Source of the DNA: Candidatus Effluviviaceae Genus V sp.
GTDB taxonomy: Bacteria > Joyebacterota > Joyebacteria > Joyebacterales > Joyebacteraceae
DNA: 64,000 nucleotides
Assembly: GCA_014728125.1 (NCBI GenBank)
Contig: WJMD01000097.1
Location: forward strand, 2,833 to 66,832
Reading direction: 5' to 3'
Within the stretch, counting starts at the first letter, position 1. Every line of letters starts with the position of its first letter. Under the pieces are notes generated by a model that had not been told where the DNA came from, did not search any database, and saw only the letters and a list, made by a program, of their open reading frames with translations. Of this stretch, positions 1,595 to 50,100 are shown piece by piece. The translations under genes and the position numbers were made by a program.

Positions 1595-1617
1595 ATTCCC
1601 GAGGAAGGAGTGACCGG

Positions 1618-3734: not shown

Positions 3735-3763
3735 TTGACGTTTGGGCATCGTGGTGGTATAAT
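3735..3763 (+). promoter_or_regulatory. consensus sigma70 promoter (TTGACG-17nt-TATAAT) upstream of the second TlpA-like gene
   Basis: TTGACG sits at 3735-3740, the spacer is 17 nt, and TATAAT sits at 3758-3763. The start codon ATG 3786 lies 23 nt downstream. Confidence 0.5.
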
Positions 3764-3785
3764 GAGCGTGAGAACAGGGGGGCCC

Positions 3786-5814: not shown

Positions 5815-5822
5815 GAGGGGTC

Positions 5823-7181: not shown

Positions 7182-7297
7182 ATACGACGACGACCGAAGA
7201 GAGTCAGCAAAGGGAAGAAGGAACACTGTCTCCACAGAGCGCACGGCGACAGGGGCCTCAGACAGTAGGAGTGAAATCGCCGCGAAAGGAGAGCAGC

Positions 7298-17009: not shown

Positions 17010-17183
17010 CCGTCTCGCACTCCCGTTCAAGGCCCGGATCCGCCGAGGGTCCGGGCGGTTCTGCGGCTGCGCGCAGCGGGCGAAACGTTTTGACCGAAGC
17101 CCGTGCCCTGTGGTACCTTGCGGGACCTGAACGTCCCGAGTCGGGGTCCGTTCCAGAGGAGCATCTGTGGCAATGGGGGAACG

Positions 17184-19330: not shown

Positions 19331-19340
19331 GGGGGACGAC

Positions 19341-19847: not shown

Positions 19848-19853
19848 GACCGG

Positions 19854-20813: not shown

Positions 20814-20942
20814 GCCGGACTCCTTCAGCCTTCAGTCAGGTGGCAATGGCGTCTTCATTCCGATAGAATCCACGGAGGCGCGGCCGCCGTGTCTCCGGCA
20901 TGATACACGACGACAGCCGCCTTCCCAAGCGGAGGAGAGCGG

Positions 20943-23941: not shown

Positions 23942-23960
23942 CCGGTCGCCGGTCATCCCT

Positions 23961-25325: not shown

Positions 25326-25477
25326 CGCTTCACCCCCCGATGCTCCCTGCCCGCGTCCGGGCGACGCACGGCGGACCAGGTCATTGTAGCGGCTGGTCCG
25401 GCGATGACAACCCTCCAGTGGTGCTGCACTTGGGGCGTCCCTCGGCGCCGGAAAGCCTTTGACCGCGGCGGGTCACC

Positions 25478-28353: not shown

Positions 28354-28456
28354 TGTGTCCGGCGCCGCCGGTTCTTCCCTTATCCCAGACTGACGAAGCC
28401 GGCCACTTGTTGTCTCCGAGGACGGGGCCGCGACCGTATCGAGAGCGGGAGTCCCC

Positions 28457-29962
28457 TTGACTGGCATGACCTTCCGCGACAGCGACCGAGCCTCGACGCG
28501 ACGAAGGGCCCTGCCCTTCGTCTTCGGCGTGGCGGTCGTTCTGCAAGTGCTCCTGGCGGTCTGGGGCTCGCGCGAGCCGGTGCTCCTGATCGGAGGCATC
28601 GTCTTCGCGATCGTGCTCTGTCTCTCGCTCGCGAACACGTTCGCGGGACTTATCGCGATCCTGCTGTTCCAGATACGCATCCTGCAGGGTTCCAGCGAGA
28701 TCGGCATCGACGAGCTCGCCTACGCAGCGCTTTTCGCCGCGACGTTCGGTGGTTGGCTGCTCCGGCACGGGCTCTCGTCGGAGTTTCGGCGGCTCCGATC
28801 GAGCCCCCTGACGGTTCCGCTCCTCGCGTTCTTCGTTGTCTGTGCTGTCTCCATCATCCCCTCGCTGGTCAACGGATACAGTCCCCTCTGGTGGTTCAGG
28901 GACCTGGTTCGGTTCTCGACGTTCCTCCTGATATTTCCCGTGGCGACGGTCGCGCGTTCCCGGAAGCGGGCCGCGGTCCTCGTCACCTGCTTCCTCGCCG
29001 TCGTTCTCTACTACGGGATCGATGCCTTCATGACATACCGGTCCATGCTGGAAGCAGCGAAGCACCTATGGCAGATGCAGTGGCAGCGCGCTCCCTCTCA
29101 CGAGGTGCTCCCGATGACGACGCTCGTCATCGCGCTCGCGGTCTTCCTGAGGACGAGGTCCTCGAGGGCGATGATCGCGTCCCTGTGCGTTGTCCTCATC
29201 TCGCTCGTCCCGCTGGCTGTCTCGCTCTCGCGCGGGTTCTGGGCCGCTTCAGGGCTCGCGATTCTGATCCTCCTGCTGGTCTCGAGGCCGGCCGCGCGCC
29301 GGGTCGTCGGCCTGGCCGTCACAACCACTGTCGGCGCGCTCATCGCGGGCTACATGGCGTTCGGGTGGCGCTTCGCCGGCGTGATCGAGAGCCTCACTGA
29401 GCGGTTCTCCTCGATCGCCTCGCCGCTGGCGGCGCTCTCGATCCAGGAGCGGCTGGCCGAGTCGTCGGCCCAGCTGGAACTCATCGCCGAGAACCCGATC
29501 ATCGGTCACGGTCTCGGGGCGACGCTCTCCTACATGTCGCCGATCGAGTCTCAGCTGATCACGAGCACGTACAGCCACAACGCCTATCTCTTCCTGATCT
29601 TCAAGCTCGGCATCGCCGGGCTTGTCGCGTTCCTCGCCTTCTACGTGAGAGGTGTTCTCCGCGTCAGAGCGGCGGCCCGCCGATCCGGATCGACGTTCGA
29701 GCGGACCCTGATGCTGGGCAGTCTCAGCCTGCTGATCGTGTTCCTGCCGCTCTCGATCACGTCGCCGCAGTTCTACGCGAAGACGTCGGTCCTCGTCATC
29801 GCGCTGATGTTCGGAATGGCCGAGGCCATCGTGGGACGGAGCGGGAGCGAGTCGGCCGAACCGGCTCCAAGAGCGCAGGGCGACCGGGCTGCTGCATCCG
29901 CTGTGCCTGAAGGCGGTCCGCGGGAGCATCGGTCCGCGGACGGCCCGGCGGAGGCGTCGTGA
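28457..29962 (+). CDS. O-antigen ligase/polymerase family membrane protein (Wzy/WaaL-like)
   Basis: The protein has at least 10 TM helices, with a large periplasmic loop between late helices typical of the Wzy_C domain. It lies immediately downstream of wzz. Confidence 0.6.
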   Translation: MTGMTFRDSDRASTRRRALPFVFGVAVVLQVLLAVWGSREPVLLIGGIVFAIVLCLSLANTFAGLIAILLFQIRILQGSSEIGIDELAYAALFAATFGGWLLRHGLSSEFRRLRSSPLTVPLLAFFVVCAVSIIPSLVNGYSPLWWFRDLVRFSTFLLIFPVATVARSRKRAAVLVTCFLAVVLYYGIDAFMTYRSMLEAAKHLWQMQWQRAPSHEVLPMTTLVIALAVFLRTRSSRAMIASLCVVLISLVPLAVSLSRGFWAASGLAILILLLVSRPAARRVVGLAVTTTVGALIAGYMAFGWRFAGVIESLTERFSSIASPLAALSIQERLAESSAQLELIAENPIIGHGLGATLSYMSPIESQLITSTYSHNAYLFLIFKLGIAGLVAFLAFYVRGVLRVRAAARRSGSTFERTLMLGSLSLLIVFLPLSITSPQFYAKTSVLVIALMFGMAEAIVGRSGSESAEPAPRAQGDRAAASAVPEGGPREHRSADGPAEAS

Positions 29963-31149
29963 GGGTCCTCTTTCTCACATCGCGACTCCCGTTCCCCCCG
30001 GACCGCGGCGACAAGGTCAGAACGCACAATCTGCTGAGGGCGTTCGCCGCGCGCCACGACGTGAAGCTCATCTCCTTCGTCGACGGCGGCGAACCCGGGG
30101 AAGGGGAGGAGATACTCCGGCAGTGGTGCGACGTCGAGACGGTTCATCTCCCGTCGTTCCGCTCGGTGCTCAACGCGGGCGCGGGCCTTCTGCGTAGACT
30201 GCCGCTTCAGGCTTGCTACTACTCGTCAGGAGAGATGTCGGAGCTCGTGCGAAGCGCACTTCGGGACGGTTGCGACGCGCTCTACGTGCACCTCTTCCGG
30301 ATGGCGCCGTTCGCGCTCGGTGCCCTCGGCGACGTTCATGCGCGGGCCGGACGCCCGGCCACCATCCTCGACCTGACCGACGCTATCTCGCGCGAGATCG
30401 AGCTGTCCCTTCCGAGGAGACGACCGCTCTCGCGGGCGGTCTACACGATCGAGCATCGCAGGGTGCGAAGCTACGAGGCGGCCATCTCGCCGCGCTTCGA
30501 CGACGTGTGGACGATCTCGGGAGCGGACGCCGACATCATCCGAAGCGCGGCGCCGACGTCGAACGTCACCGTCGTTCCCAACGGCGTCGACGACTCGCTC
30601 TTCGCGCTCGGGATTCCCGCCGAGCGACCGGTCTCCGTCCTGTTCGTCGGGAACTTCCGTGTGCCCCACAACGTGGACGCCGCGGCCTGGCTGGCCGGAG
30701 AGATCGCGCCGGCGGTGGCCGCCGAGGTCCCCGGCGTCGAGTTCGTGCTGGCCGGCGCGGCCTCCGACGAGGTCGTTCTGCCCGAACGGGGTGTCGTCTG
30801 GCGCCGCAGGGGCTTTGTGCCGGCGCTGAAGGACGTCTACGGTGGGGCCGGTGTTTTCGCCGCCCCGATGCGGTTCGCGGCGGGCGTTCAGAACAAGATC
30901 CTCGAGGCGATGGCTGCGGGCCTCCCCGTTGTCACAACATCGATCGCGAACGCCGGTCTCGGCGCCCGGCCCGATTCCGAACTTCTTGTCCGGGACGGGG
31001 CGCGGGCCTTCGCCGACGGCATCGTGGACCTGCTGTCGAAGAGGGAACTCGCGGGAGGGATCGCGGAGCGGGGACGCGCGTTCGTCAGGGAACGCTTCAC
31101 CTGGGACAGGGCTCTGGAACGACTCGAGGAGGTCTCGGCCGGCCTATGA
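29959..31149 (+). CDS. glycosyltransferase family 4 (resembles PEP-CTERM/EpsH1-associated sugar transferase subfamily)
   Basis: The N-terminus MRVLFLTSRLPFPPDRGDKVRTHNLLRAFA and the C-terminal GT-B EX7E region (KILEAMAAGLPVVTT) are present. Confidence 0.8.
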   Translation: MRVLFLTSRLPFPPDRGDKVRTHNLLRAFAARHDVKLISFVDGGEPGEGEEILRQWCDVETVHLPSFRSVLNAGAGLLRRLPLQACYYSSGEMSELVRSALRDGCDALYVHLFRMAPFALGALGDVHARAGRPATILDLTDAISREIELSLPRRRPLSRAVYTIEHRRVRSYEAAISPRFDDVWTISGADADIIRSAAPTSNVTVVPNGVDDSLFALGIPAERPVSVLFVGNFRVPHNVDAAAWLAGEIAPAVAAEVPGVEFVLAGAASDEVVLPERGVVWRRRGFVPALKDVYGGAGVFAAPMRFAAGVQNKILEAMAAGLPVVTTSIANAGLGARPDSELLVRDGARAFADGIVDLLSKRELAGGIAERGRAFVRERFTWDRALERLEEVSAGL

Positions 31150-32457
31150 GGAGCGGCCGCGCCCTCGAGCAAGACGCTCGCAGGCCTTCACGAGCGGGGA
31201 GTCGTCCGACGTCGCATCGTGCTCGGCGAACGCGAGTTTCCTCGCCGCCGCTCCGAGCCGCTCTCTCAGGCCGTCGTCATCGAGGACGGAGGTCACCTCC
31301 CTCGCGAACGACCTCGGATCGTCGGCCATCCTCACCTCTCTGTCGTGCTCGACGTGCAGTCCCTCGCAGCCCTTCGTCGTCGTGACGACCGCCTTGCCCA
31401 TCGCCATCGCCTGGATGATCTTGACCCTCACGCCGCTTCCGATGCGCAGCGGAACGACCAGGACGCGCGACCGGGCGAAGTGTTCGAACACGTCATCGAC
31501 GTCGCCGACGAACGATACCCTTCCGTCGCCGCCGGCCAGAAGCGACGCCCACTGGGGCACGGGGGAACCGACGACGGTCACCGTCGTACCGGGTCGTGTC
31601 GCCCGAATGGCCGGGAGGATCTCTTCGAGGAACCAACGCAGGCTGTCCTGGTTTGGGCGCCAGCCGAACGAGCCGACGAAGAGAACGTCGTTCTCCTCGG
31701 CGTGTGGCGGCTCCGGCAGGGCTCCGACGTCGATCGCGAGCGGTACGGCCTCGACCCGGGCTTCCTCGGACATCTCCTCCAACGCTCGCCGGTCGACGTC
31801 ACTGAAGGTGAGCGTCAGGTCGAAGAGCGGCAGGACGGAGGCCTCGTATCGCTCCATGCGCCGCCACTGCAGCGTCGCGTAGAGGCGGGCGGCGGACGAC
31901 GCCTGGAAGTCCGCGAAGAGCCTCATCACGGTCGACTGGACGTTGTGTTCGAAGAGCACGGCTGGCGCATCCGAGGCAGCGCCCGCGGCGGGGAGCGCCG
32001 GAGCGCTGTGAAGGCTGTTGAAGAAGATGAGGTCGTAGCGCTCCGCGGCCGCCTCCGCGACCCTCGCGAGGAAGCGCCGCGATGTGTAGCGTCGAATGGG
32101 GACGGGGAGCGGGTCGGTGAGCCCCCTCAGATAGCCGGCGGTCGAGACCTTCGGCAGCTCGGGCACGGCGATGACGTCGGCGAGTCCGCCGAGCTCCGCG
32201 TCCTGCGACACCGTACCGTCCGGGACGATCGTCAGGAATGTGACGCCGTGCCCCGCCCGGGCAAGCTGCGAGATCTGGTAGAACGTGGCGATCTGACCAC
32301 CTGTTCTGCGCCTGCCGGGCAGATCCTGTCCGATGAAGAGGACACGCAACGCTATAGTCTCCCGGTTGAGCGTGACGGCGTCGGCGGAGGCTCCGCCGGA
32401 CGACCGCCCGAAGCTAGCGCAGGACGGCGGCGCGGTCAAGAGCCTCGAGCCGGGCAT
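31144..32457 (-). CDS. glycosyltransferase family 4
   Basis: The GT-B pattern LRVLFIGQDLPGRRRTGGQ...VLFVGSFGWRPNQDSLRWF...RVKIIQAMAMGKAVVTT is present. The true start is probably an internal TTG near 32349; the ORF is open to 32457. Confidence 0.75.
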   Translation of the reverse strand: MPGSRLLTAPPSCASFGRSSGGASADAVTLNRETIALRVLFIGQDLPGRRRTGGQIATFYQISQLARAGHGVTFLTIVPDGTVSQDAELGGLADVIAVPELPKVSTAGYLRGLTDPLPVPIRRYTSRRFLARVAEAAAERYDLIFFNSLHSAPALPAAGAASDAPAVLFEHNVQSTVMRLFADFQASSAARLYATLQWRRMERYEASVLPLFDLTLTFSDVDRRALEEMSEEARVEAVPLAIDVGALPEPPHAEENDVLFVGSFGWRPNQDSLRWFLEEILPAIRATRPGTTVTVVGSPVPQWASLLAGGDGRVSFVGDVDDVFEHFARSRVLVVPLRIGSGVRVKIIQAMAMGKAVVTTTKGCEGLHVEHDREVRMADDPRSFAREVTSVLDDDGLRERLGAAARKLAFAEHDATSDDSPLVKACERLARGRGRSS

Positions 32458-32607
32458 GACGATTGCACGTGGAGGGGACCGGGAGAAAGGTGCTTGCTCG
32501 ACGGTGCGGCGGGCTGTATACTCCGTCTTCTAACTGAGGGGTGAAGAATATCTGTCGCAGCCCGTCGTACGAGCGTGCTGACGACGCGACTTCATGGGAA
32601 GACACGG

Positions 32608-33567
32608 ATGAAAGCACTCGTCACCGGCGGCGCTGGGTTCATCGGTTCGCATCTGGTCGAGGCGCTCCTCGACCGGGGCGACCGCGTGTGGGTCATCGAC
32701 GACCTCTCGACCGGCCGCTTTGAGAACATCGCCCACCTCGAGGGAAACCCGGACTTCAGCTACGTCATCGACACGATCCTCGACGAGGAGATCGTCGCCG
32801 AGCTGACGTCCAAGGTCGACGTGGTCTTCCATCTCGCGGCGGCCGTCGGCGTCGCCTACATCATCGAGAACCCGTTGAAGTCGCTCGAGACGAACATACA
32901 GGGCACCGAGATCGTCCTTCAGAAGGCGAACGAGGGGAAGAAGAAGGTCGTTCTCTTCTCGACCTCGGAGATCTACGGCAAGGCCGACTCCCAGCCGTGC
33001 AGCGAGACCGACGATCGGATCCTGGGCTCGACGATGATCGCCCGCTGGGGCTACTCCTCCTCGAAGGCGATCGACGAGTTCCTGGCGCTGGCATACCATC
33101 GCGAGAAGCAGCTCCCGGTGGTCATCGTGCGATGCTTCAACACCTGCGGACCGCGCCAGACCGGTCAGTACGGCATGGTCATCCCGCGTTTCGTCAAGCA
33201 GGCGCTGCTCGACCATCCGATCACGGTCTACGGGGACGGACAGCAGACCCGCTGCTTCTGCGACGTGTCCGATGTGATTCGCGGCGTCCTGGCCCTGGTC
33301 GACGAGCCCTCGGCGAACGGCGAGGTCTTCAACATCGGGAGCGACGAGGAGACGACGATCGAGGCGCTCGCCGAGAGGATCAAGGAGCTCACGGGAAGCC
33401 AGTCGGTCGTGGAGCACATTCCCTACGAGAAGGCGTACGAGGAGGGATTCGAGGACATGCGGCGCCGCATTCCCGATCTCGCGAAGATCCGCGAGACCGT
33501 GGGATACGAGCCGCAGATCGGGCTCTCGGAGCTCCTGGAACGCATCGTAGCGCACTTTAAGAAGTAA
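32608..33567 (+). CDS. NAD-dependent epimerase/dehydratase (UDP-sugar 4-epimerase / UDP-glucuronate decarboxylase family)
   Basis: MKALVTGGAGFIGSHL is present, with the SDR catalytic motifs STSEIYG and YSSSK. Confidence 0.85.
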   Translation: MKALVTGGAGFIGSHLVEALLDRGDRVWVIDDLSTGRFENIAHLEGNPDFSYVIDTILDEEIVAELTSKVDVVFHLAAAVGVAYIIENPLKSLETNIQGTEIVLQKANEGKKKVVLFSTSEIYGKADSQPCSETDDRILGSTMIARWGYSSSKAIDEFLALAYHREKQLPVVIVRCFNTCGPRQTGQYGMVIPRFVKQALLDHPITVYGDGQQTRCFCDVSDVIRGVLALVDEPSANGEVFNIGSDEETTIEALAERIKELTGSQSVVEHIPYEKAYEEGFEDMRRRIPDLAKIRETVGYEPQIGLSELLERIVAHFKK

Positions 33568-33676
33568 ACTGAGGCCGCCGTACACGGGAGGGCGTACAGA
33601 ACGAGCTTGACAGCTACGAATGAGTCCTGAATAATCCCGATTCCGACGTTTGGCAGGGATCTGTCAGGAAACTGTC

Positions 33677-34840
33677 ATGATCTTCATCTGTGCGTTCGGC
33701 CTGTCGCTTCTGGCGGTCTTGGCGCTCACCCCGGCGGTGCGCACCCTCGCCACCAGGCTCAGGTTTCTGGACTACCCCAATCGGGCGAAGGCCCATCGGC
33801 GGCCCACGCCGCTGATGGGCGGTCTCGCCGTCGCCATCGCGAGCCTCGCCGCCGCGGCGAGCGCGCTGGCGCTGATTCGTTCTCCCTACAGCGCACGGAT
33901 CGTCGGCTTCATGTCCGGCGGACTGATCGTCGTGGTGCTCGGTCTGGCCGACGACGCCAACGGCATGAGGCCCCGCGTCAAATTGGCCGGCCAGGCCGCG
34001 GCCGCCACCGTCATGCTGCTCTCGGGCGGCATCGACGGCATCCCGCTGCCGCTTCCGCTCGCCTTCGGGCTCGCCCTCCTCTGGATGGTCGGGCTCATGA
34101 ACGCGTTCAACTTCCTGGACAACATGGACGGTATCACGTCCGGTCTGGCGTCGATCGCCTCGTTCGGCATCTTCTCGCTGGCGCTCGGCCACGGCCACAT
34201 CCATACCGCGATCGCGGCCATCTCCGTGGCCGGCGGGGCGCTCGGGTTCCTCAGGTACAACTTCTCCCCGGCCTCGATCTTCCTCGGGGACGCCGGCAGT
34301 CTCTTCCTCGGATATGTCGTTGGTGGACTGTCCCTCAGGGCTGTATCGTATGCGGGGGCCGACCCGACCGCGCTCCTGATACCCGTCCTGATGCTCGGCT
34401 ACCCCATTTTCGATGCGACGCTCGTCACGGTCGCGCGGCTGACCGACGGCCGGGACGTCGCGCAGGGCGGCACCGACCACAGCTCGCATCGGCTGGCGCG
34501 GCTCGGACTGAGCGCCAGGCAGACGGCTCGAACGATCTACACCATATCCGCCCTCCTTACGGGAACGGCGGTCTATCTCTCGCTCGCCCACAGCGGTCGC
34601 ACCGGTCTCCTCGGCCTGGCGGCTCTGGCGGCCGGGGGCGGCATGCTGCTGCTCGGCATGCGTCTCGTCCGCGTTCCCATCGCAGCGCGGTCGGACAAGG
34701 TGGCCCGCAGCGTTCGGATCCTGCGGGAGCTGTCGGACGAGGAGATGGTGCTCCTCTCGGGACACCGGCAGGAACCCGCCGACGCCGAGACGAGAGAGCC
34801 CTCAGAGACGAAGACCCGCGAAAAAGTCGCGTCGAGGTAA
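33677..34840 (+). CDS. undecaprenyl-phosphate N-acetylhexosamine-1-phosphate transferase (WecA/MraY family)
   Basis: The MraY/WecA motifs NAFNFLDNMDGI and FLGDAGSLFLGY are present in a polytopic membrane protein. Confidence 0.8.
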   Translation: MIFICAFGLSLLAVLALTPAVRTLATRLRFLDYPNRAKAHRRPTPLMGGLAVAIASLAAAASALALIRSPYSARIVGFMSGGLIVVVLGLADDANGMRPRVKLAGQAAAATVMLLSGGIDGIPLPLPLAFGLALLWMVGLMNAFNFLDNMDGITSGLASIASFGIFSLALGHGHIHTAIAAISVAGGALGFLRYNFSPASIFLGDAGSLFLGYVVGGLSLRAVSYAGADPTALLIPVLMLGYPIFDATLVTVARLTDGRDVAQGGTDHSSHRLARLGLSARQTARTIYTISALLTGTAVYLSLAHSGRTGLLGLAALAAGGGMLLLGMRLVRVPIAARSDKVARSVRILRELSDEEMVLLSGHRQEPADAETREPSETKTREKVASR

Positions 34841-36160: not shown

Positions 36161-36200
36161 CCGTGGACCGCCGTCCGTCCTCCGCCCGGAGGAGCCCGGA

Positions 36201-37337
36201 TTGCGCATCGCCTTTCTGACGACCGGAGATCCCAGACGGAGGGATTTCTGGTCCGGCACACCGTACTCGATGCTGCACTCGCTGCGCCGCCGGTGCGGCG
36301 AGGTTGTGCCGCTCGGCCCTCTCCGATCGGTGACGCGTGAGGTCGTACGCGCGTGCGTGGGGGCGAGAAACCGGCTGACGAGGGGCCGTTTCGACCACAC
36401 GCACTCGCGCGTCGTCGCGCGGGCTTACGCGAGAGCGGCCGGGCGCCGGCTCAGTGAGGGACGATACGACATCATCGTGGCCCCGGCGGCGAGCGAGGCC
36501 GTCGCCTACCTCGAGACGGACCTGCCGATCGTCTACCTCTCCGACGCGACATTCCGGCTGATGGTGGACTACTACCCGGCGTTCTCCTCTCTCACCAGGG
36601 CCTCACTCTCCCAAGGTGAGGAGATCGAACGACGCGCCATCGAACGATCGTGCGCTGTCGTCCATCCGACGCGGTGGAGCGCTCGGTCGGTCGTCGAGGA
36701 CTACGGCGCCGACCCGTCACGCGTGCACGTGATCCCCTACGGTCCGAACCTCGACGCGATTCCCGATGCGGCGGTCGCCCGGCGTCATTCGACCGACGTC
36801 TGCAGGTTGCTCTTCATCGGCGTCGACTGGGTCCGCAAGGGCGGGGACATAGCGCTGGGGACCCTTCGCGCGCTCAGGGAGCGTGGCATACCGGCCGAAC
36901 TCGTCATCGTCGGTTGTGCGCCACCCGACGACCCCGACGTTCCCGGCGTGCGTCTCATGGGCAGACTCGACAAGTCCTCGACCAGGGACGTCCGGGTGCT
37001 CGACGAGCTGTTCGCATCGTCCACCTTCCTCCTGCTTCCGACGCGGGCGGAGTGTTCCGGAATCGTCTTCGCCGAGGCCTCGGCCTACGGGCTCCCGTCG
37101 ATCGCCAACAGAACGGGTGGCGTGCCCGATGTCGTACTGGATGGCAGAAACGGATTCCTGCTCGATCCCGACGCCGGTCCGCGCGAGTACGCCTCGCTGA
37201 TTGGTTCGGTCTGCGGGGACGCGCAGGAGTATCAGGATCTCTGCAGAAGAGCCCGGGGAGAGTACGAGACCCGCCTGAACTGGGATGCCTGGGCGCGTCG
37301 CACGGTCGCCGTCCTCGAATCGTGCCTGGGCTCCTGA
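36201..37337 (+). CDS. glycosyltransferase family 4
   Basis: TTG 36201 has GGAGG 7 nt upstream. The start is LRIAFLTTGDP. The GT-B C-terminal domain is present (RLLFIGVDWVRKGGDIAL...ECSGIVFAEASAYGLPSIANRTGGVPDVV). Confidence 0.75.
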   Translation: MRIAFLTTGDPRRRDFWSGTPYSMLHSLRRRCGEVVPLGPLRSVTREVVRACVGARNRLTRGRFDHTHSRVVARAYARAAGRRLSEGRYDIIVAPAASEAVAYLETDLPIVYLSDATFRLMVDYYPAFSSLTRASLSQGEEIERRAIERSCAVVHPTRWSARSVVEDYGADPSRVHVIPYGPNLDAIPDAAVARRHSTDVCRLLFIGVDWVRKGGDIALGTLRALRERGIPAELVIVGCAPPDDPDVPGVRLMGRLDKSSTRDVRVLDELFASSTFLLLPTRAECSGIVFAEASAYGLPSIANRTGGVPDVVLDGRNGFLLDPDAGPREYASLIGSVCGDAQEYQDLCRRARGEYETRLNWDAWARRTVAVLESCLGS

Positions 37338-37478
37338 CGCGTGGCGGGTTTCTTGACTGCCGTCGCGGCCGTGCTAGACTGACGTCGTAGGGAGTTTCAG
37401 GGTCGCCTGAATGGGGGCAAGGTGGCAAACCGTACGCGAGGAAGCTGGCGGGATCCCGACGCGATCGGCGCGCCGAGA

Positions 37479-38705
37479 ATGCGCGCCTACGTCTTCGTCG
37501 CCGTCTCCGTGCTCGCGATCGCCATCTTCCTCTATACGAACAGCCTCATCAGGCGGCTCGAGGTTCAGGCGGCCACCCTCTCCCGGTCGATCGCCGGGCT
37601 CTGCGCCACGGCGACCTATGCTGCGAGGGAGAACGAGGAACTCCGTGTGATCTTCACGGAGCTCATCGAGACGATCAACTTCCCGATCGTCATCACCGAC
37701 GTCAGAGGAGTCCCGATCACGTGGAAGGGGCTCCCGATGGAGATCGACCCGTACGACGTCACGCACGAGGACTACCTCAACGCCGATCCCCAGGCCGGTG
37801 ACGAGACACCGCTGGGCGAGATCATGGCGTTCACGAGAGAGCTCGACCGCAAGCAGTCCCCGATTCCGATGACGCATCTCGGCGACGACACGGTGCTCGG
37901 CTACATTCACTACGGCGAGTCGAGCATGATCCGCGAGATGCGGTACGTCCCGCTCCTGGAGCTTCTGGCCTTCGGGATCCTCGTTGCGCTGGGTTTCCTG
38001 GGGTTCCGGAACGCGAAGCTCGCGGAGCTCAGGTCGATCTGGGTCGGCATGGCCAAGGAGACCGCACACCAGCTGGGCACGCCGATCTCCTCTCTGATGG
38101 GGTGGGTCGAGCTTCTCAGAAGCAGCGCTGACGAGGACTGCGTGGCCTGCAGCCGGATGAGCGGCATGGCCGACGAGATGCAGCGCGACCTGGAGCGGCT
38201 CGAAAAGATATCGCTCAGGTTCAACCAGATCGGCTCGATCCCGAAGACGAAACGTCAGGACGTCGTCATCGTCCTCAGAGAGGCGGTCGACTATCTCAGG
38301 CGGCGGCTCCGGGCGCTCGGCAAGGACGTCGCTCTCGAGGAGCTCTATCACGAGGTTCCGCCGGTCGACGTCAACCGCGAACTGATGGAATGGGTCGTCG
38401 AGAACCTGGTCAAGAACTCGACCGAGGCCCTGCCGCCCGAGGGAGGCAGGATCGTCATCTCGACGGAGTACGATCCGAAGCAGGGCTGCGTCCGCCTGCT
38501 CTTCACCGACAACGGCAAGGGACTCTCGCAGTCTGAGCGCCGCCGGATCTTCCTGCCCGGCTACTCCACCAAACGGCGGGGATGGGGCCTCGGACTGGCC
38601 CTCGCGCGGCGCATCATCGAGGAGTATCACAAGGGTCGGCTCTACGTCGGGTGGTCCGAGCCCGGCAAGGGGACGACCTTCGTCATATCGCTTCCGGCGA
38701 CGTAG
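37479..38705 (+). CDS. sensor histidine kinase (PorY-like)
   Basis: Two TM helices are present (MRAYVFVAVSVLAIAIFLY; LLAFGILVALGFLGF). The HisKA motif is ETAHQLGTPISSLMGW, and the HATPase_c motifs are ENLVKNSTEA...TDNGKGL...GWGLGLALARRI. Confidence 0.8.
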   Translation: MRAYVFVAVSVLAIAIFLYTNSLIRRLEVQAATLSRSIAGLCATATYAARENEELRVIFTELIETINFPIVITDVRGVPITWKGLPMEIDPYDVTHEDYLNADPQAGDETPLGEIMAFTRELDRKQSPIPMTHLGDDTVLGYIHYGESSMIREMRYVPLLELLAFGILVALGFLGFRNAKLAELRSIWVGMAKETAHQLGTPISSLMGWVELLRSSADEDCVACSRMSGMADEMQRDLERLEKISLRFNQIGSIPKTKRQDVVIVLREAVDYLRRRLRALGKDVALEELYHEVPPVDVNRELMEWVVENLVKNSTEALPPEGGRIVISTEYDPKQGCVRLLFTDNGKGLSQSERRRIFLPGYSTKRRGWGLGLALARRIIEEYHKGRLYVGWSEPGKGTTFVISLPAT

Positions 38706-38759
38706 CGTGGCCGCTTCGGCGCGCACGCCGCAGAGGGGTGTGATGGGAGGGGAGGACAC

Positions 38760-40325
38760 ATGAACGGTCCCGTGAGGCGCATCCTCTGGGTCGACGACGA
38801 GATCGACCTCCTGAAGCCCCACATCATCTTCCTTGAGGGAAAGGGATACGAGGTCGGCACGGCGACGGGCGGCGAGGAAGCTGTCGAGATGATCCGTGAG
38901 AAGCCGTACGACATCGTGTTGCTGGACGAGATGATGGTCGGCATGGACGGACTGGAGACGCTCGGGCTCATCAAGGAGATCGACCCGGCACTCCACGTCG
39001 TCATGGTGACCAAGAGTGAGGAAGAGGAACTGATGAACGATGCGCTCGGGCGGCGCATCGACGACTTCCTGATCAAGCCGGTCAAGCCGACGCAGGTGCT
39101 TCTGGCGATCAAGCGCATCCTGGACGGGCGAAAGATGCGGCGCGACCAGACCGCCCAGAGCTACGCATCCGAGTTCAACGAGCTCCAGCGCCGACTGATG
39201 GAGCCGATGAACTGGGAGGAGTGGATCCAGCTCTACGTGCGTCTGGTGCACTGGGATCTCGAGCTCGACAAGAACCGCGATCCCGGACTTCAGCAGACGC
39301 ACGGAGACCTCAGACAGACCGCCAACGCGGAGTTCGGGCGCTTCGTCTCCGGGGAGTACGGGGCCTGGGTCAACGACGAGATCGACCGTCCCACGCTGTC
39401 GGTCGACATCTTCGAACGCTTCGTGGCGCCGCTTCTCAAGGCGCGAAAGAAGGTCTACTTCGTCGTTCTGGACTGCATGCGGCTCGATCACTGGCTGAGC
39501 ATCCAGAGCGACCTCGAAGGACTTTTCTCGATCACGAACAGCTACTACTACTCGATCCTGCCGACGGCCACGCCGTTCTCGAGGAACTCGCTCTTCGCGG
39601 GCCTGTGGCCGGTCGAGATCACGCAGTACGTGCCGGATCTCTGGGCGACCCCGGCGCGCGACGAGTTCAGCAAGAACCGGCATGAGCGGAGGCTCATGGA
39701 CCTGCAGATCGACCGCCACGGACTCCGCTTCTCGCCGGAGCACAAGTACGTGAAGATCTACGAGAAGGACGAGGCCGAGAACGTCAAACGGCAGATGGCC
39801 TCGTTCGTCGACCGGCGGTTCGTCTCGCTGGTCTATAACTTCGTCGACATCCTCTCGCACTCGCGTTCCGAGTCGGAGATCCTCCAGGAGATCGCGCCGG
39901 ACGAGGCGGCGTTCCGCTCCCTCGTGCGGTCATGGTTCAACCACTCGGCGCTCTACGACATCATCGCGGAGATGGCCAGGCAGGGCGCGACGGTCGTCCT
40001 GACCACCGACCACGGCGCGGTGCTCGGCAGGAGGGCAGCGCTGATCCGCGGCAACCGCGACACCTCGACCAACCTGCGCTACAAGTTCGGCAGCAACCTC
40101 GGATGCGACGAGAAGGAGACGTTCCTCATCAAGGAGCCGGCGAGGTTCAAACTCCCGGCCGACGGCGCCAGCAAGCAGTACGCGATCGCCAAGGAGGACT
40201 ACTACTTCGTCTACCCGACGGAGTTCCACCGTTACGAGCGGCAGTACAAGGGCAGCTTCCAGCACGGCGGCATCTCGCTCGAGGAGATGATCCTGCCGTG
40301 CGCCGTCATGGAGCCGAGATCGTGA
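38760..40325 (+). CDS. response regulator with receiver domain and C-terminal PglZ (alkaline-phosphatase-like) domain (PorX-like)
   Basis: The receiver domain is RILWVDDEIDLLKPHIIFLEGKGYEVGTATGGEEAVEMIREKPYDIVLLDEMMVGMDG...DFLIKP (the phospho-acceptor is likely the Asp in LLDEMM). The C-terminal 330 aa have PglZ-like metal-site residues (VVLDCMRLDHW; TTDHGAV). The total length is 521 aa. Confidence 0.8.
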   Translation: MNGPVRRILWVDDEIDLLKPHIIFLEGKGYEVGTATGGEEAVEMIREKPYDIVLLDEMMVGMDGLETLGLIKEIDPALHVVMVTKSEEEELMNDALGRRIDDFLIKPVKPTQVLLAIKRILDGRKMRRDQTAQSYASEFNELQRRLMEPMNWEEWIQLYVRLVHWDLELDKNRDPGLQQTHGDLRQTANAEFGRFVSGEYGAWVNDEIDRPTLSVDIFERFVAPLLKARKKVYFVVLDCMRLDHWLSIQSDLEGLFSITNSYYYSILPTATPFSRNSLFAGLWPVEITQYVPDLWATPARDEFSKNRHERRLMDLQIDRHGLRFSPEHKYVKIYEKDEAENVKRQMASFVDRRFVSLVYNFVDILSHSRSESEILQEIAPDEAAFRSLVRSWFNHSALYDIIAEMARQGATVVLTTDHGAVLGRRAALIRGNRDTSTNLRYKFGSNLGCDEKETFLIKEPARFKLPADGASKQYAIAKEDYYFVYPTEFHRYERQYKGSFQHGGISLEEMILPCAVMEPRS

Positions 40326-40825
40326 CCGGACCACCAGCAGAAGAGGGTGCGCTCAGGTTCAGGACGACGTCGCCGGACGAGACGCGTGAGCTGGGCCGTC
40401 GTGTGGGTCAACGCGTCGAACCGGGTGCGTTCATCGGCCTGATCGGCGACCTCGGCAGCGGGAAGACCGTCTTCGTGCAGGGACTCGCGCTCGGTCTCGA
40501 GTGCGACGAACCTGTGTCCAGCCCGACCTTCGTGATCATCAACGAGTACTCCGGCAGGCTTCCCGTCCATCACGTCGACCTCTACCGGTTGACGGACGAG
40601 GCGGCGGTCGAGTCGCTCGGTTACCGTGAGCTCTTCTGGAGCGACGGCGTGACCGTCGTCGAGTGGGCCGAGAGGGCGGGCGCGCTGGTGCCCGACGACC
40701 GACTCGACATTCGGCTCGGCCATGTTTCGGAGTCCGTTCGGTCGTTCGATGTCCGCGCGACAGGTCCGTCCTCGTCGGCGCTCCTGTCGCTGCTCGAAGC
40801 GGCGGTCGGGGGAGAAGACACATGA
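40322..40825 (+). CDS. tsaE: tRNA threonylcarbamoyladenosine biosynthesis ATPase TsaE
   Basis: The P-loop GLIGDLGSGKTVFVQGLA is present, with SPTFVIINEY and VHHVDLYRL. The GTG start overlaps the porX-like stop by 4 nt. Confidence 0.8.
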   Translation: MTGPPAEEGALRFRTTSPDETRELGRRVGQRVEPGAFIGLIGDLGSGKTVFVQGLALGLECDEPVSSPTFVIINEYSGRLPVHHVDLYRLTDEAAVESLGYRELFWSDGVTVVEWAERAGALVPDDRLDIRLGHVSESVRSFDVRATGPSSSALLSLLEAAVGGEDT

Positions 40826-41499
40826 AGGCGCTGACGATCGAAACATCGACAGAGCTCGAGTGCGTCGGCCTGGTGGTCGACAACGAGCTTGTGAGCGAGC
40901 GGAGCGTCGAGGCCGGGAGAGGACGGGACCTCGAACTGCTCGAGGTGGTGCGCGAGGTGCTCGCCGGCGCCGGCATGCGACCCGGTGATCTCGATCTCGT
41001 GGCCGTCTCGTCGGGGCCGGGGCGCTTCACGGGCCTCCGGGTCGGCATGGCCACCGCCAAGGGACTGGCGGCGCCCGGCGGACCGGACGTTGTTGCGGTC
41101 TCGACGCTGAGGGCCCTGGCTGCCTCGTCGGGCCTGGCCGGCACGGTCGCGCCGCTTCTCGACGCGCGGCGTGGCGAGGTCTACGCGGCGCTCTTCGAGG
41201 GCGGCCGGAGGCTCTCGGACGACATCGCCTGTGCGCCGGGCGAGCTGGGACGCGCGCTCCCGAAGGTGGACGGCGCGATCGCGTGCGTCGGCGGCGGCGC
41301 GCTGGCCTACCGGGACGCGGTCGCCGACGCGCTGGGAACCTCCGCGGTCATCGTCGAGGAGGCGCCCGTGAGACCCGATCCGGGCGCGCTCGCACGTCTC
41401 GCTGAGACGGCTCCGCCTACCGCTCTCGCGGACATCGAGCCGATCTATGTTCGTGGCGTGGGGGCCGTGAAGCCGGTTCCCCCGAGGGACTCCGGATGA
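40822..41499 (+). CDS. tsaB: tRNA threonylcarbamoyladenosine biosynthesis protein TsaB (YeaZ)
   Basis: MKALTIETSTELECVGLV and VAVSSGPGRFTGLRVGMATAKGLA are present. The gene has a 4-nt ATGA overlap with tsaE. Confidence 0.8.
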   Translation: MKALTIETSTELECVGLVVDNELVSERSVEAGRGRDLELLEVVREVLAGAGMRPGDLDLVAVSSGPGRFTGLRVGMATAKGLAAPGGPDVVAVSTLRALAASSGLAGTVAPLLDARRGEVYAALFEGGRRLSDDIACAPGELGRALPKVDGAIACVGGGALAYRDAVADALGTSAVIVEEAPVRPDPGALARLAETAPPTALADIEPIYVRGVGAVKPVPPRDSG

Positions 41500-41954
41500 G
41501 CGAGGTGACCGTGCGCCCGATGCGGTTCACCGACCTCGAGGCGGTCGAGGCCATCGAGCAGAAGGTCTTCTCGACGCCTTGGAGCCTGAGCTCGTTCCGG
41601 GAGGGGCTCGCCGCCGGCGCCTCGTTCTCGTGGACGGCCGAGGAACGGGGCCGAGTCGTCGGGTATCTTGTCTCCTGGGTGGTCGAGGACGAGCTTCACA
41701 TCGGCAATCTGGCCGTCGCCCCGGCACACCAGGGGCGTGGGATCGCCAGACGGATGGTCGAGCACGCACTCGGCGACGCCGCCGGGCGCGGGGTCACTTG
41801 GGCCGCTCTCGAGGTGCGCCGCTCGAACGTCAGGGCCCAGCGACTCTACGCATCGTTCGGGTTCAGCCGGGTCGGCGTTCGCCGCAGATACTACTCGGAC
41901 GATGGGGAGGACGCGATCGTCATGGGGCTCGAGGTGCGCGGGGGAGCGCGATGA
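41496..41954 (+). CDS. rimI: ribosomal-protein-alanine N-acetyltransferase (GNAT)
   Basis: The GNAT motif is IGNLAVAPAHQGRGIARRMVEHAL. The conserved tsaB-rimI linkage is present, with a 4-nt overlap. Confidence 0.8.
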   Translation: MSEVTVRPMRFTDLEAVEAIEQKVFSTPWSLSSFREGLAAGASFSWTAEERGRVVGYLVSWVVEDELHIGNLAVAPAHQGRGIARRMVEHALGDAAGRGVTWAALEVRRSNVRAQRLYASFGFSRVGVRRRYYSDDGEDAIVMGLEVRGGAR

Positions 41955-42742
41955 GCCGCTCCCGCGTTCGGGAGGCTGCGGCCGAGCTCAGGCGCTTCGG
42001 TGTCGAGGCGCCCGCGGCCGGCATCGTGCTCGGCTCCGGGCTGTCGTCGTTCGTCGACGGCCTCGCAGGTCCGATGTCGCTTCCGCTGGCGGAGCTCCCT
42101 GGCGCTCCGGTCACCAGCGTCGGCGGACACCGCGGCGCGGTCGTCCGCGGCTCGCTCGCGGGGCGCGAGGTCGTCGCTCTCGCGGGCCGCGTTCACTACT
42201 ACGAAGGGCGAGGCGTCGACGAGGTCGCGTTCGGGGTTCGGCTTCTGGCGGAGCTCGGCGTGGAGACGCTCATCCTGACGAACGCGTCAGGCGGCATCGA
42301 CACAGGCTTCTCGGTCGGCGACCTGGTGCTGATCGCGGACCAGATAGGCCTCATCTGGGGCAGAGCGGTTCCCGGCGAGACGTTCCGCGCGGCGGGCGCC
42401 TACTCGAAGCGACTGCGCGCGCTGGCCCGGGACGCCGCGTTCGACGCGGGCGTCCCGGTCAGAGACGGTGTCTACCTCGGCGTGCTGGGTCCCTCATACG
42501 AGACGCCCGCGGAGATAGCGTTCGCGAGGCGCACCGGGGCGTCCTGCATCGGCATGTCGACCGTCACGGAGGCCGCGGAGGCCCACAGGCTGGGGCTTGA
42601 GCTCCTCGGTGTGGCGCTCGTGACGAACATCCCGCTGCCGGGGCGGGCCGAGGAGACGACGCACGACGAGGTGCTCGCCTCGGGACGGACGGGGGCGAAG
42701 CGGCTCCTTTCCCTCGTATCCGGGGTGCTCGAGCGTCTATAA
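41951..42742 (+). CDS. purine nucleoside phosphorylase (PNP/MTAP family 1)
   Basis: The family motifs GIVLGSGLSSF...GHRGAVVRGSLAGREVVALAGRVHYYEG...CIGMSTVTEA are present. The gene has a 4-nt overlap with rimI. Confidence 0.8.
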   Translation: MSRSRVREAAAELRRFGVEAPAAGIVLGSGLSSFVDGLAGPMSLPLAELPGAPVTSVGGHRGAVVRGSLAGREVVALAGRVHYYEGRGVDEVAFGVRLLAELGVETLILTNASGGIDTGFSVGDLVLIADQIGLIWGRAVPGETFRAAGAYSKRLRALARDAAFDAGVPVRDGVYLGVLGPSYETPAEIAFARRTGASCIGMSTVTEAAEAHRLGLELLGVALVTNIPLPGRAEETTHDEVLASGRTGAKRLLSLVSGVLERL

Positions 42743-42806
42743 TGGATGCGCGGACGCGCCACCACCTCGAGGCGGGCGAAGCGCTCGGCGACTGGAGGAG
42801 ACCACG

Positions 42807-43706
42807 ATGGACGGCATATCCTGGCTGAGACGCCGCAAACCGGGCATCAAGGAGACCGCCAAGCGGGAGGTGCCCGACGGCCTCTGGAGGAAGTGCGACG
42901 CCTGCGGCGAGATCATCTACCACAAGGAACTCGAACGGAACCTGTGGACCTGCCCGTCGTGCGGGTACCACTTCCGGATCTCTGCGCCGCAGTACCGGGA
43001 CATCCTGGTCGACACCGGGAGCTTCGTCGAACTCCTCTCAGGCATCGAGTCGGTCGACCCCCTGGGGTTCGTCGACTCGAAGAAGTACACGGACAGGCTC
43101 GAAGCCGCCAGGCAGAAGACCGGGCAGCGCTCGGCCGTCATGACCGGCAGCGGCCGCATGGACGGTCATCTCGTGATGCTCGGGATCCTCGACTTCCGTT
43201 TTCTCGGCGGCAGCATGGGCTCAGTGATGGGTGAGAAGCTCGCCAGGCTCACCCGAATGGCTATCGAGGAGCGGGTTCCGCTCGTCACGCTGTCGAGCAC
43301 GGGCGGCGCCAGAATGCAGGAGGGGATCCTCTCTCTCATGCAGATGGCCAAGACGAGCGCCATGCTGGCACGTCTCCACGACGATGGGTTGCTGCACGTC
43401 GCCATCCAGGCGCACCCCACGACCGGGGGCGTGACGGCGAGCTTCGCGTCGCTCGGCGACGTCATCATTGCCGAGCCCGGGGCGCTCATCGGCTTCGCCG
43501 GGCCGCGCGTCATTCAGCAGACCATCAGGGCCGAGCTGCCGGAGGGGTTCCAGCGTTCCGAGTTCCTGCTGGAGCACGGGATGGTCGACATGGTCGTTCA
43601 CAGGAAGGAACTCAAGAACGCCGTCGTGAGGCTCCTCAGGTTCTTCGAGGAGGAGCGGAGCGGGACGGAGGACGCGCTTGGACAGGCAAGAAGGCAGGGC
43701 CTTTAG
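42807..43706 (+). CDS. accD: acetyl-CoA carboxylase carboxyltransferase beta subunit
   Basis: The zinc ribbon is CDACGEIIYHKELERNLWTCPSCGYHFR. The carboxyltransferase domain carries GGSMGSVMGEK...GGARMQEG. Confidence 0.9.
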   Translation: MDGISWLRRRKPGIKETAKREVPDGLWRKCDACGEIIYHKELERNLWTCPSCGYHFRISAPQYRDILVDTGSFVELLSGIESVDPLGFVDSKKYTDRLEAARQKTGQRSAVMTGSGRMDGHLVMLGILDFRFLGGSMGSVMGEKLARLTRMAIEERVPLVTLSSTGGARMQEGILSLMQMAKTSAMLARLHDDGLLHVAIQAHPTTGGVTASFASLGDVIIAEPGALIGFAGPRVIQQTIRAELPEGFQRSEFLLEHGMVDMVVHRKELKNAVVRLLRFFEEERSGTEDALGQARRQGL

Positions 43707-47142: not shown

Positions 47143-50100
47143 GTGATCCCCATCCTCTTTCTTGCGCTCGCCCTGTCAGCGACCTCCCCGCAGCAGGCGG
47201 GGGGCGATGACGGCTTCATCATCTCAGCCGACACGGTCGAGGGAAGCGAGGGCCCCGAGGGAAGGGTCGTCGAACTCTACGGGAACGTCTCGATCACGCG
47301 TCGCGGCGCCGTCCTCACCGGCGCTCGAGGCACGGTCTACGAGGACACCGGACTCGCCGTCATCAGGGGGAACGTGCGCGGAACCGACGGGCCCGCCTCG
47401 ATCGCATGCGACTCGCTCAGATACTATCGTGACGACGACGTGGCCGTTCTGACCGGGAATGCGTCGTACGCCGACACATCGGTCGTCGCCCGCGCGCGCC
47501 GCATCGACATCTACCGTCTGGACGAGATCGCTGTCTTCTCGGGGGACGTCGTGGCCGAGGACGTCGACGGCGAGGCCGAGCTCACCGCGCAGCGGCTCGT
47601 CTACGACGCCGCCCGCGGCGAGGCCCGATCGTACGGGGATCCAGTCCTCACGACCTATGACGATGAGGGTGCGATCGATGCCGTGCTTCGTGGAGACGTC
47701 ATCGAGATGGCCACGGAGACGGAGACGATCAGGGCCTTCGGAAGCACGCGGATCGAGACGCGCGACGTCATGGCGCGGGCCGGGGTGGCGACACTCTTCG
47801 GGGAGGACGAGAGGATCGTGCTCGACGGCTCGCCGTCGGTGCAGCAGGACACCGACCGGATGAGCGGCGGGCGCGTGGTCGTCGCGACGGCGGACGGCGA
47901 GATCGAGCGCGTCGACGTGACGGGGGGTGCGCGAGCCGACTACACGATCGAACCCGACGAGCCCGGAGGTGACCTTGAGTCCGGCTACGTCGCGGGCGAC
48001 AGTCTGACGATGTACTTCGCGAACGGGGATCCGGTCAGGACCTTCGTCCGCGGTCGGGCCGAGAGCGAGCACGCCGTCGGGCTCTCCGGCGAGCGCAACA
48101 CGCTGTCGGCGCGGACCATCGACGTCAGGTTCTCCGAGGGCAGGATCAACCGGGCGACCTTCCGCGGGAACGCCCAGGGCGTCTACGTCTTCGTCCCGGA
48201 GGATGGGGGAGAGACGGCCGGGAGCGACACGACGGCCTTCGACCGGGTGGCCTACGCGTCGACGACGATCGACTACTACGTTCCCAGGAACAGGATCGTC
48301 CTCACGAAAGGAGCCCGGGTCGAGTACAAGAGCACCGAGCTCAGGGCCGGGCGGATCGAGTTCGACCCAGAAGAGGAACTGATGATCGCGAGCGAGAGTC
48401 CTGACCTCCTTGAGGAGGGCGAGCGACTCGTGGGGTCGCGTCTCGGCTACGACCTGAGCGACGAGTCGGGCGCCGTCGTCGGTGGCGTCACGACATTCGA
48501 GGAGGGGCTCTACGCCGGCGACTGGATCGTACGCGAGTCCGACGGCTCACTGAGCGTCAGGGACGGCGTCTACACGACGTGCGCCGACGAGCACCCGCAC
48601 TATCGGCTGGTCGCGTCGCGGATGCGCATCTACCTCGATGACAAGGTCGTCGCGCGGCCCGTCATCCTCTACATCGGTGAGATCCCGGTGCTGGCACTCC
48701 CGTTCTATGTCTTTCCCATCCGCAAGGACAGGCACTCGGGGTTCCTCATTCCGACCATCGAGGTCGGCCTGTCCGGGGACAAGGGCCGGTTCGTGCGGAA
48801 CTTCGGCTACTACTGGGCCCCGAACGACTACGTCGACGTCTCCGCCTGGGCCGACTACTACGAGCAGACGAGATGGGTCGGTCACCTCAAGGCGCGCTAC
48901 AAGGTGCGCTATGCCCTGTCCGGATCGGTCGAGTCGTCGTTCACCGACGAGCTGGCGGGCGGAAAGCGCCGCTGGGACCTCAAGGTCACCCACCGCCAGG
49001 AGTTCGGCCGCCACTGGACGGCCGGCGCCTCCGGGGACTTCCGGAGCGATGCCGCGTACGCCACCGACACGAACCAGACGATCGAGGAGAGCGTCAACAG
49101 GAGCCTCCACTCCCAGCTGTGGTTCCGGGGGCGGTGGAGCGGTGTCTCGGTCGGCGTGACGCTCGACCGCAGGGAGGAGCTCGACCAGGACCGCGTGTCG
49201 GAGCTCCTGCCCAAGGCCGACATCTCGTTCTCGTCGAAGCCCATTCTGTCGGCGGAGAGGGACGACGGCGCGTTCAGAAAACTGCTCTCCGAGATATCCG
49301 TCGGCTGGAGGGCGCTCGCCGTCAACGACAGGGACACCTCGGGAGACGACGAGGAGGTGCACCAGGGCGTGGGGGTGTCGATGTCCCTGCGTTCGAGCAT
49401 CAAGGCGTTCCGGTGGGTCAACCTGACCCCGCGGCTCAACATCAGGGCGAACGTCTACGACCGGGGCCGCGACGGCGGGGAGTTCCCGACGAGGGTGACC
49501 TACGACGCGGGTGTCTCGGCCGGCACGACGGTCTACGGGACCTTCATGCCCGAGATCGGCCCCGTCAGAGGGGTGCGCCACATCGTGGAGCCGTCGGCCT
49601 CCTTCTCCTGGACCCCGGAGTTTTCGCAGTACTTCGAAGAGGACGGGACCGACCGCTTCTACTCCTTCAGCGGGTTCGGAGGCACGCCGGGGGCGAGGAA
49701 GTCCCTGAGCCTCTCGCTCGTGAACAGGCTTCAGGTGAAGCTCTCCTCTGGTGACGACACCCGCAAGCTGGACAATCTGGCGAGGCTGTCGTTCCGGAGC
49801 AGCTACGACTTCCGTCGCGACGACGAACGGTGGTCCGATCTGTCATCGGGGTTCGAGCTTCGCCCGGGCCGGGCGCTCTCCTTCCGGTGGTCGGGACGCC
49901 ACGACCCGTACGACGGCTGGGCCATTCAGAACTCCAGTCTGACGACGACGGTCACGCTGAACGGGAGCGCACCGGCGGCCGACCGGACGTGGGAGGACCG
50001 CGTGCAGGACATGGCGTCTCCGAGCCCGGTCGACGAGCTGAGACAGCAGATCGCGGAGCGCGCGAGATCGGGACTCACGACGCTGAAGCCGTGGAGCGCC

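Follow-up and report, generated by a model that had tools for sequence, protein, structure and literature searches.

A PorX-type regulator in a predicted operon with a sensor kinase in an Eisenbacteria-like genome with candidate type IX secretion cargo

What does a PorX-type response regulator do in a high-GC candidate-phylum bacterium, and which kinase controls it? The question is raised by a 64,000-nt stretch of contig WJMD01000097.1 (Candidatus Effluviviaceae Genus V sp., assembly GCA_014728125.1). This whole stretch is called the window here, and coordinates are window positions unless a locus is named. It encodes a sensor histidine kinase followed by a response regulator, and an initial annotation, made from the sequence alone, likened the two proteins to PorY and PorX of Porphyromonas gingivalis, which control its type IX secretion system (T9SS). 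In our reading, to which we assign a probability of roughly 0.8, they are the first products of a five-gene operon (kinase-porX-tsaE-tsaB-rimI) in the genome of an Eisenbacteria-like bacterium that employs type IX secretion, with signaling running from the kinase to PorX.

The regulator gene (38760–40325, plus strand) encodes a protein of 521 aa, with a receiver at residues 7–120, a helical linker and a phosphodiesterase domain of the PglZ/alkaline phosphatase superfamily. The initial annotation described a CheY-like receiver followed by PglZ and proposed a profile search for the latter. Pfam recognizes both, Response_reg at residues 8–117 (82 bits) and PglZ in the C-terminal part at residues 230–423 (62 bits), and nothing else, leaving the protein without a DNA-binding output domain. 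What had been called 'PorX-like' is, judged by profile and structure alignments, a true PorX ortholog. The NCBIfam equivalog NF052313 ('T9SS response regulator signal transducer PorX') scores 661.3 bits (cutoff 300), with residues 7–520 covering positions 2–513 of the 513-position profile. Over the same residues, the best match among solved structures is P. gingivalis PorX (PDB 7PV7, E = 1.5e-138; 42.7% identity over 510 aligned positions, full length), and Flavobacterium johnsoniae PorX (8TED) aligns with E = 6e-131. The length falls within the 500–530 aa given as a criterion for PorX (PMC9757075). P. gingivalis PorX (PGN_1019; 7PV7, 7PVA, 7PVK) shares the three-part architecture in 518 aa, and F. 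johnsoniae PorX (8TED, 8TEF, 8TFF, 8TFM; also 8P6F), from a Bacteroidota species that glides, is a full-length homolog with the same domain order. A look-up of the exact window PorX sequence returned no record.

The functional residues defined for PorX (PMC9757075) can be mapped onto the window protein by alignment with the P. gingivalis homolog. In the receiver, these are the acidic pocket D12 and D13, the phospho-acceptor D56 (D58 in P. gingivalis) and the switch residues T84 and K106 (T86 and K108). In the PglZ domain, the zinc ligands D239, T272, D361, H365, D415, H416 and H500 of P. gingivalis correspond to D238, T271, D363, H367, D417, H418 and H502, which include the nucleophilic threonine (T271), while the nucleotide contacts R276 and N358 correspond to R275 and N360. 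The serines of the PglZ dimer interface are identical in the two proteins, whereas I129 of the P. gingivalis receiver dimer interface is Arg127 here. In an alignment of 81 PorX sequences, the acidic-pocket, phospho-acceptor and switch positions are invariant, and the metal-ligand and nucleotide-contact positions are invariant or conserved in 80. Because the catalytic, metal-binding and nucleotide-contacting residues are fully conserved, the earlier proposal of a regulator with an enzymatic output is well founded, and by homology the protein is predicted to be active.

A PglZ domain can also be read differently, since it is a hallmark of bacteriophage exclusion (BREX) systems, and the regulator might then belong to a BREX/Pgl-type phage defense. 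It does match the BREX-3 and BREX-2 PglZ models weakly, and BREX PglZ proteins, of which the BREX-3 type is closest, share the PglZ/alkaline phosphatase fold and its metal ligands. However, these matches (BREX_PglZ_3, 93.6 bits against a cutoff of 250; BREX_PglZ_2, 49.8 bits against 200) lie far below threshold, compared with 661 bits for the PorX model. BREX PglZ proteins, moreover, lack a receiver, measure at least 600 aa (PMC9757075) and are accompanied by brx genes, whereas the window protein has an N-terminal receiver in 521 aa and no brx or pgl genes were found in the 64 kb. We regard a role in BREX as effectively refuted.

The gene directly upstream of porX encodes a sensor histidine kinase (37422–38705, plus strand). 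Its start had been placed at ATG 37479, giving 408 aa, but homologs measure 425–426 aa, which makes GTG 37422, giving 427 aa, the most likely start. Pfam detects HATPase_c (67 bits), with HisKA (22.7 bits) just below its cutoff of 26.9. The catalytic motifs are complete: an H-box (KETAH216QLGTP), an N-box (N328/N332), G1 (D363–G367), an intact F box and G2 (G387–L392), all of which are invariant in an alignment of 28 relatives. The protein is predicted to start with a cytoplasmic tail (residues 1–21), followed by a first transmembrane helix (~22–42), a periplasmic sensor (~43–173) and a second transmembrane helix (~174–196). In an AlphaFold model built from the alignment (mean predicted local distance difference test score, pLDDT, of 77), the first transmembrane helix runs on into the periplasm, where the sensor of ~130 aa appears PAS/PDC-like, with a small alpha/beta module at residues 89–164. 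The second helix passes directly into the helix of the dimerization and histidine phosphotransfer domain, with only ~20 residues separating the membrane from His216. In this model, residues ~174–216 (37941–38069) leave no room for a HAMP domain, and the kinase has none. NCBI labels relatives of the kinase 'HAMP domain-containing'.

This layout of two transmembrane helices around a small periplasmic domain agrees with the initial annotation, which had compared the kinase with PorY. As published, PorY (~394 aa) has two membrane segments, a periplasmic region spanning A35–R149 and a kinase core starting at ~179 (PMC4800418, PMC12152298). P. gingivalis PorY (PGN_2001) and the window kinase thus resemble each other in size and layout, a likeness drawn from the published description, and both have been proposed as partners of PorX. 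They differ in that the PorY gene lies far from porX, whereas the window kinase gene is adjacent to it and co-oriented.

How far this adjacency extends can be assessed by comparing gene order. With each GTDB species represented by one genome, at least 590 stretches encoding PorX were found, and 80 porX loci were compared, with the upstream side assessable in 68. The ten closest PorX homologs (72–78% identity) come from Candidatus Eisenbacteria or unclassified metagenome-assembled genomes (MAGs), and homologs at ~50% identity come from Latescibacterota, Zixibacteria, Gemmatimonadota, KSB1, Calditrichota, Ignavibacteria, Chlorobiota and Bacteroidota. The genome had been suspected to be non-Bacteroidetes, and it indeed falls outside the Bacteroidota, with Candidatus Eisenbacteria MAGs as the nearest PorX relatives; its owner is an uncultured bacterium of soil or sediment. 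In 34 of the 68 assessable loci, the gene directly upstream of porX encodes a full-length homolog of the window kinase (36–78% identity), and a further one at a distance of 780 nt brings the count to 35. These loci belong to Eisenbacteria, Latescibacterota, Zixibacteria, Gemmatimonadota and some MAGs labeled Ignavibacteria, and often carry serS farther upstream. In most Eisenbacteria-type loci the kinase follows serS more closely than it does in the window, where a gene for a glycosyltransferase of family 4 (GT4; 36164–37337) sits between the two; the same insertion is seen in some relatives only (L002, L005).

Because the adjacency persists across phyla at only 36–47% kinase identity, the window kinase is very likely the cognate partner of PorX, as the initial annotation had proposed; this is a genomic argument only. 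An alternative would be that the kinase serves another response regulator, with PorX receiving its phosphoryl group from an unlinked kinase, from acetyl phosphate or from the TsaE/UbK protein. Such an arrangement would resemble P. gingivalis, where porX is an orphan gene and its kinase is debated, and it would accommodate both the 33 of 68 assessable loci in which porX has no adjacent kinase and the kinases of the same family that are unlinked to porX in Chlorobiota and in Ignavibacteria- or Bacteroidota-labeled MAGs. We nevertheless consider it very unlikely, given 35 loci from at least five candidate phyla in which kinase and porX are adjacent on the same strand, with short gaps, and an operon that encodes no further response regulator.

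The kinases beside porX also share sensor motifs. Among 36 such kinases, P88 and G96 are invariant, and P98, W101, D142, P147, H163 and G165 are conserved in at least 90%, which suggests a common ligand or partner. No NCBIfam family matched the first 200 residues of the window kinase at E ≤ 10, hence no curated PorY or sensor model applies to them. A profile built from the sensor only and searched against 1.84 billion representative proteins matches 238 clusters (50% identity, E ≤ 0.001), and most full-length matches are kinases of ~390–445 aa with the sensor at ~35–170. By this profile, the sensor-kinase family is small and specific. Its named members belong to Chlorobiota (Candidatus Thermochlorobacter; Chloroherpeton thalassium), Marinimicrobia, Kryptoniota and Ignavibacteria or are encoded in MAGs labeled 'Bacteroidota bacterium', and the profile recognizes 116 of 119 kinases of a Chlorobiota-related set (library-scaled E of 1e-6 to 1e-12). 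The label 'Bacteroidota bacterium' may follow broad GTDB usage, in which Ignavibacteria and Chlorobia are included. None of the sampled members comes from Porphyromonas or a cultured Bacteroidia species, in searches that were saturated by close relatives or confined to uncultured lineages of the Fibrobacterota–Chlorobiota–Bacteroidota (FCB) group.

Two family members, in Thermochlorobacter (L081) and on a 'Bacteroidota bacterium' contig (L083), are not located beside porX and share the orphan state of PorY. On L083, the orphan kinase lies ~1.5 kb from an extracytoplasmic function (ECF) sigma factor gene paired with one for a LiaF-like protein, with a Por_Secre_tail cargo gene nearby (L083 positions 3845–4510 on the minus strand, 6001–7200 and 12999–13200). 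This grouping could be a SigP-like arrangement.

The proposed link to type IX secretion comes from other porX loci, the reported distribution of PorX and cargo candidates in the window. The upstream kinase is found in none of the 13 assessable loci labeled Bacteroidota, Bacteroidetes, Cytophagia or Chitinophagaceae. In 23 loci of the Bacteroidota/Ignavibacteria type (L036, L040, L044–L047, L050, L054–L056, L059, L064, L066–L071, L074, L076–L078 and L080), porX is directly preceded on its own strand by sprA/sov, which encodes the T9SS translocon and fills the slot that the kinase holds in Eisenbacteria-type loci. The gene is found, for instance, at L044:2097–9776 and L066:1962–8813; TIGR04183 gives more than 1000 bits, with 1070 and 1039 bits for two examples. 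This adjacency independently ties the PorX family to T9SS. PorX has been described as limited to the FCB group, where it is co-distributed with T9SS (PMC9757075), and for this reason its occurrence outside the Bacteroidota is unsurprising; T9SS genes are likewise on record for several FCB phyla other than Bacteroidota (PMC11285876). NCBI taxonomy files the Eisenbacteria under 'candidate phyla' and not formally in the FCB group. Our literature search found no publication that treats Eisenbacteria and type IX secretion together.

In the window itself, two proteins are candidate T9SS cargo. The first is Omp28-like (7271–9316, plus strand) and carries a type A sorting domain at residues 597–677 (TIGR04183, 28.7 bits, cutoff 23); its C-terminus also passes Pfam Por_Secre_tail (29.9 bits, cutoff 27) and matches FlgD_ig (48.7 bits). 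The second is an M14 zinc carboxypeptidase (9410–11734, plus strand; Peptidase_M14, 162 bits) with a type A sorting domain at residues 690–771 (TIGR04183, 32.7 bits, cutoff 23) and a FlgD_ig match of 36.6 bits. Both C-termini score higher with FlgD_ig, a related Ig-like model, than with Por_Secre_tail, and this lineage may carry a divergent kind of sorting domain. The initial annotation had placed T9SS cargo genes next to the kinase and regulator genes. Two sorting-domain proteins are indeed encoded, but at a distance of 26–30 kb upstream.

Several points weigh against the proposed role in secretion. The C-terminus of the M14 protein reaches only 20.2 bits with Por_Secre_tail, under the cutoff of 27. 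Neither T9SS core genes nor an ECF sigma factor gene were found in the 64-kb window, and the conserved neighbors of porX here are the translation-related genes serS, tsaE, tsaB and rimI, not secretion genes. In addition, the pairing of PorY with PorX in P. gingivalis is itself disputed (PMC9757075). Two further genes were considered as T9SS components and rejected. An 818-aa tetratricopeptide repeat (TPR) protein (13864–16320) reaches 29.7 bits with the PorW/SprE model, whose cutoff is 250, and shows generic TPR similarity; a 1087-aa outer-membrane protein (47143–50406), considered as a truncated SprA, is LptD.

The translation-related neighbors invite another explanation, in which PorX is mainly a nucleotide-signaling or growth-state module tied to tsaE, tsaB and rimI (with serS upstream), and its role in T9SS is secondary or absent. 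In 78 of the 80 loci, and in every lineage, the gene directly downstream of porX is tsaE, and porX-tsaE(-tsaB) is the sole neighborhood kept across all of them; tsaB is kept 3′ of tsaE in most loci, and the position of rimI in many. In the window, porX, tsaE, tsaB and rimI are coupled by four-nucleotide overlaps. PorX cleaves signaling oligonucleotides in vitro (PMC9757075), and in P. gingivalis it is phosphorylated on Tyr79 by UbK1, a kinase of the TsaE family (PMC13241743). The equivalent of Tyr79, however, is Ala77 in the window PorX, and tyrosine occupies this column in only 4 of 81 sequences. PorX reportedly does not occur outside the FCB group and accompanies T9SS in every case (PMC9757075); together with the sprA-porX loci and the cargo genes in the window, this makes such an explanation unlikely in our view.

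The association of porX with tsaE nonetheless deserves attention in its own right. In P. gingivalis, the UbK1 gene is always found downstream of porX in 81 strains, and the 2026 study of these strains is the sole publication tying PorX to UbK/TsaE that our literature search found (PMC13241743). The linkage is far broader than reported. The window gene (40322–40825, plus strand; Pfam TsaE, 126.5 bits, cutoff 26.6) encodes a UbK/YdiB-family P-loop ATPase/kinase with all four UbK motifs intact, namely Walker A (GDLGSGKT), SPT (SSPTF), HxDxYR (HHVDLYR) and EW, and their core residues are conserved at ~100% in 78 sequences, the window protein included. Like the UbK1 gene, it stands immediately 3′ of porX. 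Unlike UbK1, it is accompanied by a PorX without the target tyrosine and is followed by tsaB and rimI, as in a classical operon for N6-threonylcarbamoyladenosine (t6A) biosynthesis; for the latter reason it may simply be a housekeeping tsaE. The linkage may mark a functional connection that has been conserved, or porX and tsaE may merely be transcribed along with housekeeping genes.

The operon itself is delineated by coding statistics and gene spacing. The window has a GC content of 64–70% throughout (67% for the window), and nearly all real genes lie on the plus strand. Real genes were separated from shadow open reading frames (ORFs) by a filter on third-position GC (GC3 > 0.78), and the kinase and regulator ORFs, at 0.88 and 0.91, are real coding frames. 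An 828-aa ORF on the minus strand (37374–39860), which runs across both genes, fails this filter and is an antisense shadow. Upstream of the kinase lies a candidate sigma-70-like promoter (37353–37380, plus strand; TTGACT, 16 nt, TG-TAGACT), the only promoter-like site in 36900–43000, where shuffled sequences give a mean of 0.4; it is a consensus match only, and the sigma-70 consensus may not be that of the host phylum. No terminator-like site was found from this candidate through rimI. Kinase and porX are separated by a spacer of 54 nt (38706–38759, plus strand), which holds a strong ribosome-binding site (GGGAGGGGAGG) before the porX ATG. Thereafter, the GTG start of tsaE overlaps the porX stop (GTGA), the ATG of tsaB (40822–41499, plus strand; TsaD/TsaB family, t6A biosynthesis; Pfam PF00814, 81.8 bits) overlaps the stop codon of tsaE, and the start of rimI (41496–41954, plus strand; GNAT acetyltransferase, Pfam Acetyltransf_1, 73.9 bits) overlaps that of tsaB. 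With rimI as the last gene, the five genes appear, from sequence, to be transcribed as a unit, with translation coupled from porX on. In P. gingivalis, a Bacteroidia pathogen, the tsaE/ubK gene likewise lies immediately downstream of porX, but porX is an orphan gene there, whereas in the high-GC candidate-phylum host of the window it follows a sensor kinase gene in a predicted operon.

Homology to the P. gingivalis and F. johnsoniae proteins predicts phosphotransfer, phosphodiesterase activity and T9SS control for the window pair and suggests the following mechanism. The membrane-bound kinase would sense a periplasmic cue through its small PAS/PDC-like domain, perhaps a protein ligand of the kind that PorA represents for P. 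gingivalis PorY. The kinase would then autophosphorylate at His216 and pass the phosphoryl group to Asp56 of PorX. Phosphorylated PorX is expected to dimerize, which would activate the two-zinc phosphodiesterase site of the PglZ domain, with Thr271 as the nucleophile, for the cleavage of cyclic or linear oligonucleotides. PorX might also contact the T9SS motor, an ECF sigma factor or both, thereby raising the expression and activity of T9SS.

In itself, the locus is one Eisenbacteria-type addition to the known PorX family, and its value is comparative. Operons of kinase and porX in non-Bacteroidota FCB phyla bear on the question of which kinase controls PorX. They occur in about half of the related loci, in at least five FCB candidate phyla, and for this reason PorX was probably an ordinary two-component regulator in its ancestral state. 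Going further, the ancestral FCB arrangement might have been a three-part cassette that joined a sensor kinase to PorX and TsaE/UbK. In such a cassette, PorX would integrate His–Asp phosphotransfer from the PAS/PDC-sensor kinase with input from, or coupling to, TsaE/UbK. Bacteroidota and their relatives would later have relocated the kinase, giving rise to the 'orphan' PorY, and sprA would have come to lie upstream of porX. This scenario is tentative, and we consider it possible rather than probable. The sensor-kinase family nevertheless provides a concrete candidate family with which PorY can be compared. If PorY does belong to it, comparative genomics would settle the disputed PorY–PorX pairing; in that case, the porX-tsaE linkage in 78 of 80 loci would indicate a conserved connection between T9SS regulation and TsaE that reaches beyond one species. 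Operonic kinase–PorX pairs, free of complicating pathogen biology, could also be convenient material for assays of phosphotransfer and phosphodiesterase activity.

The rest of the window comprises thioredoxin-like genes, an exopolysaccharide cluster (~17–35 kb), serS, the GT4 glycosyltransferase gene, housekeeping genes and lptD, in addition to the operon. Searched in full against Rfam at gathering thresholds, the 64 kb contains no RNA family, and no riboswitch or leader is evident. The exopolysaccharide or surface-glycan cluster (~17100–34840) ends immediately upstream of serS and encodes a UDP-glucose dehydrogenase, a flippase-like and a sulfatase-like protein, a Wza/EpsE-type exporter, a chain-length determinant, a Wzy-type polymerase, two glycosyltransferases of the PEP-CTERM/XrtA-associated type, a sugar dehydratase and a WecA-like initiating transferase. 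The cargo genes are preceded by genes for thioredoxin and ResA/TlpA-like thiol-disulfide oxidoreductases (1217–1594, 1618–2217 and 3627–4352), a DUF6029 protein (4315–5814) and a PKD plus Omp28-like protein (5658–7181). The run of genes from 1217 to 7181 may form a cell-surface or redox-maturation neighborhood for secreted proteins.

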